Source of the DNA: an uncultured Thiotrichales bacterium
GTDB lineage: Bacteria; Pseudomonadota; Gammaproteobacteria; Francisellales; CACEW01
DNA length: 64,000 nt
NCBI GenBank assembly: GCA_903870015.1
Contig: CAIQBE010000022.1
Span: 99 to 64,098 of the forward strand
Direction of reading: 5' to 3'
The position numbers are program-made. Below are positions 9,001 through 21,000 of this stretch, piece after piece (the first letter of the stretch is position 1; each line of letters opens with the position of its first letter).

Positions 9001-12000
9001 ATGTTGCAGGCGCCTTTGTTTGTTACTCTGGTATTACATGCAGCGTGGGTGAGTTTGCCGATATTAAGCTCTAGCAGCACCTTGCAGCTCGGATATACCA
9101 GTGTCCTAGCCCGGGGGGCACAGCATTCATACGGTCTCAATCTAGTCTTTTTATAGCTGCCCATGGCTATAAAATGCTACAAAACAGCCAGTTTTTCTAA
9201 TATTTAGCAAAAATTAGCAAAAAATCTTGCCAAGCCCTATTTACAGCCCGCCCAACTTTGGTTAGAATAGCCCCTCGTTTCCCCTTGTAGTTTAAAAAGG
9301 GTAAATGAGCAAGTTATTCCCCGATAGCTCAGTCGGTAGAGCAAGTGACTGTTAATCACTGGGTCGTTGGTTCGAGTCCAATTCGGGGAGCCATTTTATA
9401 GATCAGTAGCGTTCACCAAAGTTCATCAAAGCCTTTAAAATCAAGTTGTTCATCGAGATTGTTATTCATATTCATTCAGGTCGTTTCACCTAAATCCGCT
9501 TTGCAAAGTGGTACAATTAGGGGTGGAATTTAACTAAGCAAAAGGAGATACCCCTATGCCCCTCAATGACTTGATTATACGGACTGCCAAGTCCTTGGAG
9601 AAAGCCTATAAGCTTTCAGATGAAAAAGGCTTATTCTTGTTTGTTCACCCAAATGGTTCTAAGTATTGGCGTTTGAAATATTACTTCCTGGGTAAAGAAA
9701 AACTGCTTGCTTTAGGGGTATATCCCGAAGTTAAGTTGGCAGAGGCTAGAGAAGCGCGTGGTGCATTAGGTATCGCACATCGCACGCTACAGCATTGTGG
9801 TAAGGTCTTTCGCTATGCCCTGGCAACAGGCAGAGCACAACGAGATATAGCGGCTGATTTACGTGGTGCTTTGGCGCCTGAAGAAAAAGGACATTTTCCT
9901 ACGATTACTGACCCGACAGAAATTGGTCACCTTTTGCGTGCCATCAATGGGTATCATGGTTATTTTGCTACGCGCTGTGCATTGCGCTTGGCTCCCATGT
10001 TTTTTGTGCGCCCTGGAGAGCTGCGGCAGGCCGAGTGGTCAGAGTTTAACTTTGAAACAAAAGAGTGGCGAATCCCTGCTGCGAAAATGAAAATGCGGGA
10101 AATGCATATTGTACCCCTGTCCACACAGGCGATTGAGATATTGGAAGAGTTGAAGCCGTTGACGGGCAATGGAAAGTATCTTTTTCCTGGTATTCGCTAT
10201 CCTGATCGGCCAATGTCTGACAATACGCTCAATTGTGCTTTGCGTAGAATGGGGTATACGAATGATGAGATCACCAGTCATAGTTTTCGGTCAATGGCTT
10301 CGACTTTGCTCAATGAGCAGGGTTGGAATCGTGATGCGATTGAACGACAGCTTGCGCATGGTGAGCGGGATAAGATTCGGGCGACTTATAATTATGCGGA
10401 ATATCTGCCTGAGCGTAGAAAGATGATGCAGCATTGGGCTGATTATTTGCAATCATTGTGTTAGTTCTGAATAATGAAATACGAACAAAGGTAAGGTGTC
10501 GACTTTAGAGTGTAGTGCTGAATTTAGTCGCATAGCTCCTGGTGTTCTCATTTTTCTTGACTTGGGAGGGTGCTATAGCCAGAATACGCTACGATTCGCA
10601 TTTTATTCTAAAAAGGGAAATGCATGTTTTCAAAGCTAAGTGTAGAAGTTGATGGCACTGAAATCGAGTTTACTGCCTCAGAGCTCATTCAACTTGCTCA
10701 GGAACTTTTAGATGCTTTACCAGGAGAGGAAATACTGGTTCCTGAGCAAGGATGGTTTGATGCAATTATGCGTACAGTTGCGCCACAAATGAACTATGGG
10801 GCGATCCTTGCAGGGCGCCTAGATCCCTTCATTGTTTTACCCATACATTTAACGGGAATGAATAATCCACAAAAATGGCTTTATGTAGTTAAAGCGCTTG
10901 CTACAGATTATGAAGATAACCCCTTGCAAGGATGGTGGGCAAAAATTGGTAAGCGATTAGTTTTAGTTCAAAATACAGAAGACTATCGTTTTTATGTGGC
11001 CGATCATGGTAACGTGCATGAAATTTATGACAACACTTGGGAGCTCGCTTTTAATAGCGTGGATTGGACTCACCCAGGAATGATTAGCGCAATTGTCCAA
11101 ATTGAATTAGAATTTAGAAAAATGTCTGCAGCCGAGCGCGAGGAATTAAACCAGAAGCTTTTAGAGTTAAGTAAAGCTACTCCAGTTGCGGAGTTACGAG
11201 AGTTTCATCCTGGCATGAAGGACGAAGAAATACTGAAGCTTCAAGCTCAGTTGGATGATGCAGCTTATGTTAAAAACCAGCGGGCTTTTTTTGAAGAAAA
11301 TCATCGTTATGTTCTGAACATCTTAATAAAAGAATTAGGGAAGCACCTTAGCTTAGTATCCAATGTATACGCAGACTGTGGCGTACTGGATGAAGAAGGT
11401 GAGGTAATTGAATATGACGATGAAAAAGAAGCGCTTAAACGTCATGAAGATGCGACACGTATTATTAAAGCTTTAATTTTGCTGTCAGTTGCAAGAGGGG
11501 TCAATACAGGTAAGCAGGAGTCATTGTGTCGGCCAATCTATGCATTTGGCTCGCGAGAGCGAGGAGAGGCCTATCGTAGCTTTTATGATGCATTAATTGA
11601 ATGCTTAAAAACTCAAGATTCAGTTGAGCTCGTACGCGCAGTTCGTATGCTTTTACGTGGAGAGTCTTATGTAGATGTTCCTGATTTTCTGCCTAGTTTA
11701 GTTGGCGCATTGTATCTTGCCGAAGGGTCAAGAAATCACCTGTCGCTGCTAACGACCACCATGATGCTTGACTTAATGGAATCAGGGGTGAGTCTGGAAA
11801 TAGAGGGTAAGAATATTTATGACTGGCCCCATGTATTAGTTCATCCAAGTGAGGTAGCGCTCCAAAAAGATGGGCGTTATCCTAATAAAAAAGGGGGCAC
11901 CTTAACGATGTGTCATAGGGGCGCAGTTGATGATGCTAAAACCCCTCTTACGCCTGGGAGTGTCTTAAATCGACTTAGAAAGAAGGAGGCGCGATTAATT

Positions 12001-18000: not shown

Positions 18001-21000
18001 AAAACTACGCGGCTATGGGTTCTATGGTAGCGAGCAGTCAAAGAAAGGGGATCGATTTAAAAGAGCTTTTTGTTTATAAAGTTTTGGAGTTTATTGGCCT
18101 CGGCTCAAAAGTGCATTTTATTACGCATCAAGCCAGTGAGGATCGTGCCCTTGATAAAAATGCCTTGTTTATTGCAACTCAAGATGTCTCATATACAAAG
18201 ACGCCCGCGACCGCATCATCAAGCGCTCTAAGCACTATGGGAAAAGAAAAAATATTTCGTCCAATATCGGAACTCTATGATCTCGACAGGCAAAAGGCGA
18301 TTGGCGATGAAAGATTTTTGGCACAATTTCAAGCAGAAATGGCGACTTCTGAAATCACCCAAATCAAGTTTGAGGCCACAATCATTGATATTATCGCTAG
18401 GGTGTTCCGCCTTGGAGATTTAAACGGGGGTAATTTTGGGCGTGTTTCTGTAACCACAACGGGGCATTCATATGAAAAGTGGAAGCTTTTTGATTTTACT
18501 GTCCCCGAAAAAATGGAAGGTCGGTATATCATTGGAGATGTAGAGAATACGACAGAAGGGTTTATAAAAGGCAATGGTACATTAAGACACCCAACCCCTT
18601 TTCTCTCTAATGTTTTGATGTGTAGAGATCGTGGTGAAAAAATTCAAGTAGGTCATGCTGTGATTGCCATGCTTGAACGAGGTCGTCCCGGGATCGTTGA
18701 TGCCAGCAAAGTTAAAATGTCATTACCTGATGCCATCAGGCGGGCTGTTGATGAAATCATCCGCTATATGAGCGAGCCCATGGGTGCATCAGGGACAAGA
18801 GCGGATATTTTAGGGGTTGACCTCTCGAAATCTTTAGCGGATTTAGATGACTACAGCCGCTCTGCATTAGAAAATTTTGATCGTTTAAGAACTGGGTTAC
18901 ACAAGCTTCAAAGCTCCCCTTCAGCAGAAGCCGGTGGTGGGGCGGAAGCGCTTCTTAAATAACAGTTGAAAGTCAGTATTATAAATTAGTCTTTTTTGAT
19001 AGGCGCTTTTTTGGGCGGTTCTGTGCACTCAGGCAAGTCCTTGCGATTAAAAACAGCGTGTTGTAAGCTGCATTTGGTTTAAAAAACCAAGGGACTCTTA
19101 AAAAGGACATGGGGAAAACTCGGGGTTACTTTTAGATGAAACTTTCTGGGGGCATTATTGGGGGCATCCTTCGTGATATCTCAATAGGCCTCAAGGTAGG
19201 ATAAGGCTTTCAGGTTAAAGTATTGCTCCCTCTCTCATGTTAATTCTACCTTCTGGGCCTCATACCAATGACGACGAAAAAATATGGGGGTATAAATGGT
19301 TGTACACTCCGAAATAATAATTATCATTATGGCTTTAAATAAGGATTTTCAGGCATGAATGTGAGGTCAATTCGGGAGCCATTTTATCCTAAGGTTATTT
19401 TTGAAGTATAAAATTCTACAAGTTTTCTTTTGATGACAATTTTTTGTTTGCTCCTACCTAAGATGCTGGTTGCTCTCTGTATACTAATCTGCATTAATTC
19501 ATCTAAACAGATCAAATCGCCATGAGAGGTCGGGTTATGCAGCCTATCTTTTATGTTTTTCTTTGCGTGTTACAATAGCGCTATATGTTGATATTATTTG
19601 CTATGGCTTGTTAGGGGGGGTATGGGATCGGGCACTATTGTTAAAAAAGAAGGTCTCTATTATTTTGTTATTAGTCCGGAGATTTGTTATCGTCTTCCTG
19701 ACCAAATTTCTGCGCTTTCTAGTTCTCAGTGTAACGAAATTTTTATTTATTTTGCACGTCAGTATATTGCTGATGAAGGTGATTCGGAAGCCAAGGATAT
19801 TGCGCAGACGGCTTATCCCGATGCAGCGGCAAGGCCTTCTAGCCGAGGAGTTTCAGCTGTGCGTGAATGGAGTCGGGATGACTTTATTAATTTGCTTGGA
19901 TCAGATGAGGCGGGGGAATACTCTTCTGATTCAGACACTGATGATCTAAAAAAAAGGTCTTTTAGTGAAGAGGATATGAAAAGATCCCTAGGCTTTAAAT
20001 TAAGAACAGGGCCTCTTAAACGCGATACTCTTCAAGATCGTATTCAACAAAGCGTGGAATTGAAAACTTTGGAAAAACCTGGTAGAAATGAATATTATTC
20101 CAAGCAAGAAGGCGGTCGCTTGGATTTAAGTTTAAGGGGTGATGATGCGACTTTAGAATTACGTGAGTATCTTCTTCAACTCACTAAAGGAGTACCACCA
20201 ACAGAAATAGATCTATTAAATAAAGCTGTGAGTATCAATAACGACTTAAATCGTCGTAAGTCCATAGATGAGTTTCTAACAATTGAGAGCACTTCGCACG
20301 GCTACATTATTAAAGGACAGCTAAAAAATTATAGTAACAATGAATTTTTTAAAGTTGGCTATAAGCTTAAAAATACCTATTGCCTGCCCATGTTCAGGGG
20401 TATCTCTTATCTTGTTGACCGGTGGAGTCGCCAAGGTAGAAAAACGCACCGGCGATCAAAGCACACTTCTTTTCTTATGCGTTTTTCAGAGGCCATTTTA
20501 AAAATAATCGAAGGTAATTTTTATACTTTAGCCTCTTATGATGGGATTGATAAAGAGGCCTTACAAGAAGTTCGCGACGTTTTAGAAGCAAAGATGATAG
20601 CCTTGCGAGGAACAGAGCCTGAAATTTTTGCACATCTATTACAGGATCCTACTAAGGTAAGTGTTGCCAAAGACAAGCATCCACAAGAGTTTCGCAATAT
20701 ACTAGAACTATTACAATATCTCTTTTCTAATGGGATCGTTAACTTTTTAGCTTTCTTAAAATTGTTTAATGAATCCTGTCCTGGCATATTACCTAACGCT
20801 TATAATCCATTTTTACCTTTTAGTCATTTACCATATCATGCGGTTAAATATGCATTTGGGGACAAGGACCCATATTCTCGATTTGTACTCCCGGTGCTTT
20901 ATGATGGAGGTGGGCGGCCTCGCAAACCTTTTGTAGGAAGATTAATGGTTAATTTGCACCCTTTGTCAGATTTTATTGATATAGATGAGCCTGATGTTGT

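Follow-up and report, generated by a model that had tools for sequence, protein, structure and literature searches.

What is the block of genes that follows the tRNA-Asn gene in this part of the genome of an uncultured Thiotrichales bacterium, and can it still move? The window analyzed in the present study (the whole 64-kb stretch, i.e., 64,000 nucleotides of contig CAIQBE010000022.1) contains, at 9.4–19.4 kb, a segment of approximately 10 kb in which six genes are enclosed by two copies of a tRNA 3′-end sequence. The original prediction described this segment as a stripped-down integrative element that had become a fixed effector island. Based on the results obtained, it is very likely the remnant of an integrative and conjugative element (ICE) that survives as a probably immobilized island. 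Taken by itself, the loss of mobility is somewhat less secure, and we regard it as probable.

The borders of the island are sharply defined. The tRNA-Asn(GTT) gene is the sole tRNA gene of the window according to ARAGORN and Rfam. The left repeat (attL) comprises the 3′ half of the T-stem, the 3′ strand of the acceptor stem, the discriminator base, and CCA, followed by TTTTAT. The right repeat (attR) differs from it by a 1-nt indel (GGGG to GGG), with 20 of 21 positions kept, and the longest exact block common to both is GGGAGCCATTTTAT (14 nt; 9386–9399 and 19374–19387). No further match to the 21-mer was found in the window at up to three mismatches, and 100 shuffles of the window yielded none. 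The predicted repeat, with its single missing G, was thus recovered at the same positions and is unique in the window. Further degenerate copies or tandem islands were not indicated there either: the 14-mer core with up to three mismatches occurred 6 times against 4.9 expected, which is the level of chance. The locus has the anatomy of a tRNA-associated island, namely, an intact tRNA gene, an island that begins at its 3′ end, a distal repeat, and an integrase gene adjoining attL.

The integrase beside the tRNA gene is of the P4 type, as had been predicted; it matched the Arm-DNA-bind_3, Phage_int_M, and Phage_integrase profiles (Pfam) and PRK09692, a P4-type family (NCBIfam). However, it is not intact, with 302 aa instead of approximately 395 aa, and all 119 others of the best 120 homologues, from a search of 5.8 billion proteins, have 390–430 aa. 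Residues 66–299 align to positions 163–394 of the PRK09692 model, and approximately 100 model positions have no counterpart. Its nearest homologue, P0027 (395 aa), is 93% identical, and the alignment of the two is interrupted by a clean in-frame gap that corresponds to P0027 residues 66–155. The deletion amounts to 270 bp, with its junction at approximately 9750/9751 of the window. Solved structures map the N-terminal arm-type DNA-binding domain to P0027 residues 1–99 (3ju0) and the central domain to residues 97–202 (2kj8 and 2kkv); on this map, the deletion has cost the protein the final third of its arm-binding domain and over half of its core-binding domain. The RPGE, HSFR, LAH, and YNY motifs of the catalytic domain are retained. 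In lambda-type tyrosine integrases, the loss of core-site binding should abolish recombination. Because the deletion removes DNA-binding regions of the integrase, it most likely ended self-excision.

The region upstream of the integrase gene is conserved beyond this genome. The spacer of approximately 160 bp between attL and the integrase gene is shared with the locus of P0027 (L016), including the tandem GTTCAYCAAA and the TGGTACAAT box, and its 3′ part (approximately 60 bp beside the integrase gene) is shared with another locus that carries a related integrase (L017). Judging from their sequence, the GTTCAYCAAA/TTTCACCTAA motifs at 9411–9493 are candidate arm-type integrase sites. No such candidate was seen at the right end of the island by a motif search or by reading the sequence.

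These relatives of the integrase also point to the origin of the island. The gene for P0027 adjoins tRNA-Asn(GTT) in another neighborhood, yfgM-bamB-der-Fe-ADH. The metagenome-assembled genome (MAG) that encodes it (GCA_945860585.1; loci L010 and L016 on contigs CAMARA010000005.1 and CAMARA010000003.1) has a TssG protein that is 36% identical to that of the window, and is, hence, only distantly related. Since the integrase module is 93% identical while core proteins are far more diverged, the comparison indicates that the integration module has spread horizontally. The record of this MAG is titled 'Francisella tularensis subsp. holarctica', a label that may be doubtful; its gene content on the side of the type VI secretion system (T6SS) and its integrase family resemble what is seen in the other MAGs of uncultured gammaproteobacteria found here.

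A second relative, P0028 (85% identical), leads a complete ICE at a tRNA-Glu gene in L017 (ENA ERZ27237461 k141_343461), in which the gene order is int, AlpA, type IV coupling protein (T4CP), VirB10, VirB9, VirB8, VirB6, and VirB4. Related MAGs frequently encode integrases of 82–93% identity, one or more of which are part of a complete ICE. The island resembles the L017 ICE in its integrase family, the conserved region upstream of the integrase gene, the insertion at a tRNA 3′ end, and the position of the integrase gene next to attL. In contrast, the L017 element occupies tRNA-Glu, keeps AlpA, T4CP, and VirB4/6/8/9/10, and shares no cargo with the island. From this comparison, we infer that the island is of ICE ancestry. 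It is aptly described as stripped-down because it lacks all transfer genes of the L017 type, and this part of the original prediction is strongly supported by the integrase relatives at 93 and 85% identity, the L017 ICE, and the polymorphic integration site described below.

The integration site was compared in relatives that were reached through TssG homologues. In a related species (TssG 54% identical; a neighboring 147-aa protein 84% identical), the contigs keep the order ahpC-darP-spoU-tssBCEFG-tRNA-Asn. In one of these (L004, 11115–11400), the tRNA-Asn site is empty, and beta-lactamase and lipase genes come directly after it. In two others (L005, 11183–18360, and L006), the site holds a 7.2-kb type I restriction-modification island without an integrase gene, which is bounded by GGGGAGCCATT and has a right flank identical to that of the empty site. 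In a fourth (L007, 11115–12580), a different island starts with a full-length 409-aa P4-type integrase. The tRNA-Asn gene after tssG is thus a recombination hotspot in this group. Type I restriction-modification systems are the targets that ArdA counters.

The empty-site comparison suggested with the original prediction was therefore informative in one respect: the sister species is polymorphic for empty and occupied sites, whereas the species of the window is represented by one strain, its conspecific contigs (L001–L003) being 100% identical to the window. The contig of the closest relative (L008; TssG 70% identical) stops at tssG. A genome collection scanned with TssG alone gave no match, and a scan of it with a TssG alignment gave two distant MAGs, neither with a tRNA gene after tssG. 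A metagenome scan for the attL/attR/attB/attP pattern returned only three unrelated contigs out of 241 million records. In these, the 20-nt attR core CAATTCGGGAGCCATTTTAT occurs as single copies (L019, 5739–5758; L020, 5273–5292; L021, 1027–1046) that are chance matches and not att sites; on reading the translation, the coding sequence that holds them appears menD-like.

The position of the island next to secretion genes needs a cautious reading. The compact tssB-tssC-tssE-tssF-tssG module (4152–9156 of the window) follows ahpC-darP-spoU and is kept in all relatives found; the comparison covered L004, L008, L009, L011, and L012, and ahpC was unseen in L009, where the open reading frames (ORFs) are unannotated. 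No other recognizable T6SS gene lies beside the module, and tRNA-Asn directly follows tssG in the closer relatives only. Because the tRNA gene holds the same position in relatives, the adjacency of the island to tssBCEFG is no sign of a functional link.

In the ORFs of the island, searches of Pfam, NCBIfam, PADLOC, and PHROGs revealed no relaxase, type IV secretion system (T4SS), T4CP, replication, excisionase, phage-structural, or defense families, which bears out the absence of relaxase, T4SS, and replication genes noted in the original prediction. As the intergenic gaps do not exceed approximately 400 bp, there is no room for hidden genes. Since it encodes none of the three components that define an ICE (relaxase, T4CP, and mating-pair-formation T4SS), the island does not count as one. 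The claim that it is fixed follows by inference from the 90-codon integrase deletion and from the lack of excisionase, relaxase, and T4SS genes.

From this anatomy, we envision the following course of events. In the chromosome, the 3′ end of tRNA-Asn(GTT), downstream of tssBCEFG, would have been recombined by a P4-type integrase with the attP site of the element. Integration would have rebuilt the tRNA gene, and the tRNA end displaced by it would now form attR, at a distance of 10 kb. The element would then have lost its genes for conjugation, excision, and regulation, while its integrase suffered the in-frame deletion, and the island would now be passed on vertically. What it appears to have retained are ardA, which is typical of the leading regions of conjugative elements; a hairpin, the folded + strand of which would rebuild a promoter into ardA and which may be a relic or a still-intact entry promoter for use in a recipient; and four lineage-specific cargo genes, which encode an OTU protein, a TPR protein, an orphan with two transmembrane (TM) segments, and a protein resembling phosphoinositide 3-kinase (PI3-kinase) and protein kinases. 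The features are listed in Table 1.

Table 1. Features of the island and of its borders, with positions in the 64-kb window.
Feature	Position	Strand	Description
tRNA-Asn(GTT)	9318–9393	+	Intact, CCA encoded; integration target; ARAGORN, Rfam 69.6 bits
attL core	9379–9399	+	CAATTCGGGGAGCCATTTTAT; final 15 nt of the tRNA gene plus TTTTAT flank (21 nt)
Left end (attL arm and region upstream of int)	9400–9555	+	GTTCAYCAAA/TTTCACCTAA motif cluster at 9411–9493; conserved TGGTACAAT
P4-type tyrosine integrase	9556–10464	+	302 aa; in-frame 90-codon deletion; catalytic domain intact
OTU protein	10624–13053	+	809 aa; C-terminal OTU domain, residues 601–729; PF02338 43.7 bits (cutoff 23.3)
TPR protein	13236–14069	+	277 aa; TPR_19 (5.7e-8) and other TPR families
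Orphan	14352–16202	−	616 aa; two central hydrophobic TM-like segments, residues 322–340 and 368–386
ArdA antirestriction protein	16409–16933	−	174 aa from ATG; PF07275 4.6e-40, 138 bits (cutoff 27)
Nested hairpin upstream of ardA	16965–17120		156 nt; candidate Frpo-like single-strand promoter
Kinase-fold protein	17301–18962	+	553 aa; N-terminal helical domain and kinase-like fold
Right end of island	18963–19367		Non-coding; no ORF of 60 aa or longer
attR core	19368–19387	+	CAATTCGGGAGCCATTTTAT; copy of the tRNA 3′ end plus TTTTAT (20 nt)

The presence of ArdA inside the island was verified: the match covers PF07275 positions 1–153 of 155 and is, thus, full length, and the protein also matches the PHROG 2059 anti-restriction family. 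Homologues occur in 676 PLSDB records, 591 of which are conjugative plasmids.

The hairpin upstream of ardA consists of a perfect 25-nt inverted repeat (17014–17038/17063–17087, with a 24-nt loop) nested within outer arms that form a 20-nt inverted repeat. As single-stranded DNA (ssDNA), it has a dG of approximately −56 kcal/mol and z = −8.4 to −9 (+ strand, −55.6 kcal/mol and z = −8.4). In the 3′ arm, TTGACG is followed after 16 nt by TAAAAT (17066–17093; + strand). When the + strand is folded, the −35 hexamer and the spacer are fully base-paired; an unpaired bubble with the −10 hexamer follows, beyond which pairing resumes in the outer stem. Transcription of ardA uses the + strand as its template, and a polymerase that started at the rebuilt promoter would copy the 5′ arm and continue into ardA. 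The arm sequence is unique within the window. Metagenome assemblies of this strain break at 16.9–17.2 kb, as expected because of the long perfect palindrome located there. The hairpin matched no Rfam family (microRNA-hairpin noise only) and gave no blastn match among 72,556 PLSDB plasmids.

This arrangement recalls the Frpo/ssi single-strand promoters in the leading regions of plasmids such as F and ColIb-P9, which require the T strand as template; ardA, psiB, and ssb are classic examples of the genes expressed early there (PMC9849209, PMC11541004). The points of likeness are a long hairpin right upstream of ardA, a folded strand that is the template, and a stem that rebuilds the −35 and −10 elements. 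The hairpin of the island differs in its lack of sequence similarity to PLSDB plasmids, its chromosomal position, and the lack of a recognized oriT or relaxase. It is also shorter, at approximately 156 nt against approximately 330 nt for Frpo. We tentatively suggest that it may be an Frpo-like promoter from which ardA would be transcribed on ssDNA, a possibility that we hold to be clearly weaker than its negation. In double-stranded DNA, the same hexamers could instead drive the 553-aa gene rightward, and either the hairpin or the spacer at 16203–16408 could hide an oriT of the kind that an integrative mobilizable element, with or without its own relaxase, would need for transfer by a helper.

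The cargo had been described as four large orphan proteins. The homologue searches covered two of these; the description holds for the 616-aa protein, whereas the 553-aa protein belongs to a family of approximately 15 members. In the 809-aa protein, the Cys motif GGDCLFRS aligns to GDGNCFFRA of a viral OTU protein, and the His motif NHY is present (it was also aligned to Otu2); by profile and catalytic motifs, it is plausibly an OTU cysteine protease. For the 616-aa protein, a search of 1.84 billion representative proteins gave no homologue, and Pfam, NCBIfam, PDB, PADLOC, and PHROG gave no match.

The homologues of the 553-aa protein show 40–62% identity and come from metagenomes, and K231, E255, D373, N375, N378, and D398 are invariant in the family alignment. 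No sequence match was found in Pfam, NCBIfam, or solved kinases of the PDB, in the last case with the family profile as well. The AlphaFold2 model has a predicted local distance difference test score (pLDDT) of 80.7. Its top Foldseek matches in the PDB are all kinases, with the class III PI3-kinase Vps34 first (E = 8.8e-5), followed by ATM and then protein kinases, yet the template modeling scores are 0.26 or lower. The 'kinase-motif' label given in the original prediction is, therefore, reasonable at the level of the modeled fold. Among the homologues, one (L015, 110–14075) adjoins U-box, Sel1, and PLD-domain genes, another (L013, 10001–11578) lies between IMPDH and an unknown gene, and a third (P0013) was found in the EukProt data set for the chrysophyte Epipyxis sp. 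PR26KG. This pattern of occurrence would fit a host-associated lineage. Two further members, P0023 and P0024, are paralogues apparently located on one 7.5-kb contig.

The domain content predicts that the cargo proteins are effectors acting on a eukaryotic host, to which we assign roughly even chances. This prediction draws on the OTU and TPR domains, the fold like that of PI3-kinase and protein kinases, the two-TM orphan, the family member in protist data, and the homologue embedded among U-box, Sel1, and PLD genes. OTU deubiquitinases are known as effectors of intracellular bacteria, such as the Lot family of Legionella and ChlaOTU of Chlamydia. Like these, the 809-aa protein is large, bacterial, and composed of several domains, and its OTU domain has intact catalytic Cys and His motifs. 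Unlike these, it shows no detectable sequence kinship beyond the generic OTU profile, and the only secretion genes nearby are tssBCEFG of the T6SS.

Several observations weigh against the immobilized ICE remnant as the complete account of this locus. The single G that distinguishes attL from attR may be an original difference between attP and attB rather than a sign of decay, since attP is the source of the attR copy to the left of the crossover. Residual or helper-dependent activity of the integrase is conceivable, with an open frame and an intact catalytic domain and upstream region. Neither a conspecific empty site nor a circular junction was found, in collections that were without the att sites of this organism and with one strain available. 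The −35 and −10 hexamers upstream of ardA are not unusual alone (1 found, 1.1 expected), and two ardA genes of Legionella plasmids have no comparable upstream hairpin (z = −1.4 and −3.5). The family of the 553-aa protein sits in non-island contexts elsewhere, and, thus, the cargo need not have come with the element. Finally, the composition of the island is inconspicuous. Its GC content is 0.418 against 0.415–0.428 in the housekeeping core at 36–64 kb, which encodes FBA, RsmB, RNase PH, UbiA, AccA, TilS, AdoHcyase, HisS, and PurA. Its tetranucleotide correlation to this core (r = 0.905) equals that of the 19.4–35 kb region, while core windows reach 0.92–0.96.

The contrast in GC and k-mer content to the core that was to be checked is, hence, not distinctive relative to the adjacent 19.4–35 kb region. 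We rejected composition as evidence of foreign origin, since the island and this region cannot be told apart by it. Composition fits donors of similar composition and long residence alike; a divergent composition is common, not obligatory, for islands.

The shared composition is, on the other hand, a point in favor of a mosaic, in which the integrase gene, ardA, and the hairpin were imported, while the OTU, TPR, TM, and kinase genes are native to a variable region that extends over 9.4–35 kb. In addition to the agreement in tetranucleotide signature and GC with the orphan-rich 19.4–35 kb region, a second protein with OTU-like motifs lies just beyond attR, the homologues of the kinase-fold protein are found elsewhere among core genes or effector-like clusters and not in islands, and no cargo homologue is present in the related islands L007, L016, and L017. 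However, the four cargo genes lie strictly inside attL and attR and are packed tightly with the integrase gene and ardA. The absence of cargo from relatives is weak evidence since cargo turnover is normal in families of ICEs and genomic islands; no cargo is shared with L005 either. Furthermore, no paralogy was detectable between the 809-aa and 1063-aa proteins that carry OTU motifs. We consider a mosaic origin rather unlikely; it is compatible with an ICE-derived island and does not exclude it.

The region beyond attR merits a description in this context. At 19598–34727, a 15-kb block holds large genes without an informative family match, which encode proteins of 1063, 621, 1349, 840, 338, and 316 aa, together with a PAS-LuxR regulator. 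The 1063-aa protein (19598–22789) has OTU-like Cys (DGSCLYY) and His (NHYH) motifs and no Pfam match, and a sequence search of the PDB gave nothing useful for it. The C terminus of the 1349-aa protein shows weak, below-cutoff matches to P-loop GTPase families. No counterpart of this block was found downstream of the tRNA gene in relatives. Based on these comparisons, the whole of 9.4–35 kb appears to be lineage-specific, with the repeat-bounded 10 kb as merely its best-delimited part. A stretch with a LuxR-type helix-turn-helix (33539–33685, − strand) is 45% identical to the C terminus of the PAS-LuxR regulator (29056–29706) and may be a small paralogue or fragment. A nested-palindrome repeat of approximately 185 bp is present in two copies that are approximately 95% identical (34826–35010 and 62668–62853) and resemble a miniature inverted-repeat transposable element or a repetitive extragenic palindromic sequence; the first copy marks the exact point at which the orphan-rich region gives way to the housekeeping core.

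An immobilized island also has to be set against one that is still mobilizable with outside help. The integrase of a sister ICE would excise it, a helper T4SS would transfer it from an unrecognized oriT, and ArdA expressed from ssDNA would protect it on entry. The att cores agree at 20 of 21 positions and are thus almost complete, the open frame of the integrase retains the catalytic domain and is preceded by the conserved upstream region, and integrases of 82–93% identity are frequent in related MAGs, with at least one in a complete ICE; moreover, the perfect inner inverted repeat and the full-length ardA argue for recent function or ongoing selection. Against this, no relaxase, excisionase, or T4CP was found in the island, the right end has no candidate arm-type sites, the 64-kb window contains no second intact integrase, and the metagenome scan yielded no empty or circular junction. 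Continued mobility of this kind is, thus, doubtful in our assessment. Equally speculative is the further idea that the hairpin is a working ssDNA promoter, unrelated in sequence to the enterobacterial Frpo/ssi elements, and that a helper-mobilized island shuttles eukaryote-targeting genes. If true, an OTU protease and a PI3-kinase-like kinase would be moved among uncultured, probably protist-associated freshwater gammaproteobacteria, in which the same tRNA-Asn hotspot can house a type I restriction system that ArdA counters.

A prophage remnant or a phage satellite, similar to P4 or to phage-inducible chromosomal islands, is very improbable. Satellites and prophages also use P4-type integrases, and phages carry ArdA-like genes (PHROG 2059), but the PHROGs matches in the island are confined to the integrase and ArdA, on which ground this reading was rejected; primase, capsid, packaging, and repressor families did not appear, and the closest characterizable relative of the integrase belongs to a T4SS-bearing ICE. 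A defense island was likewise rejected, with no PADLOC match in the island. That there is no island, but a chance repeat among ordinary chromosomal genes, would suit the unremarkable composition and the occurrence of the 20-mer in the three menD-like contigs, but is effectively refuted by the geometry of integrase and tRNA and by the related loci: shuffled windows gave no match, the repeat is exactly the tRNA 3′ end beside an integrase of a tRNA-specific family, and the three matches are single ones among 241 million records and not repeats in this genome.

As an ICE remnant at an asparagine tRNA gene, the island is best compared in architecture with the high-pathogenicity island (HPI) of Yersinia. 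The HPI and its ICE forms (HPI-ICEEc1, ICEKp1, and ICEEh1) occupy asn tRNA genes of Enterobacteriaceae, and the family has a P4-like integrase and a 17-bp attO repeat, CCAGTCAGAGGAGCCAA, of the tRNA 3′ end (PMC2801613). Its asn tRNA hotspot holds several islands as well as integrase-less remnants, and members with and without a conjugation module are known (PMC2801613). The island of the present study shares the P4-type integrase at an asn tRNA gene, the repeat of the tRNA 3′ end, and the hotspot; in these respects, it is comparable to a degenerate representative of that family. It differs in its unrelated lineage, an uncultured freshwater gammaproteobacterium with 42% GC; in its cargo, which lacks siderophore genes; in its repeat of 20/21 bp, which reaches 6 nt beyond the tRNA and contains a 1-nt indel; and in its integrase, which is neither intact nor absent, but internally deleted in frame.

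The island adds one more member to a familiar class of genomic islands; its interest is chiefly descriptive, and current understanding is unchanged. Nevertheless, it would provide a clean, well-bounded example of the decay of an ICE into a fixed island, in a lineage for which lake metagenomes are the only source, and the precise in-frame loss in the DNA-binding domains of the integrase is a plausible immobilizing lesion. It also offers a candidate for a non-enterobacterial single-strand promoter in front of ardA, and the unannotated kinase-fold family and the OTU protein are candidate factors for interactions with a host. Experiments might be rewarding for two parts of this island only, namely, the hairpin and the kinase-fold family.

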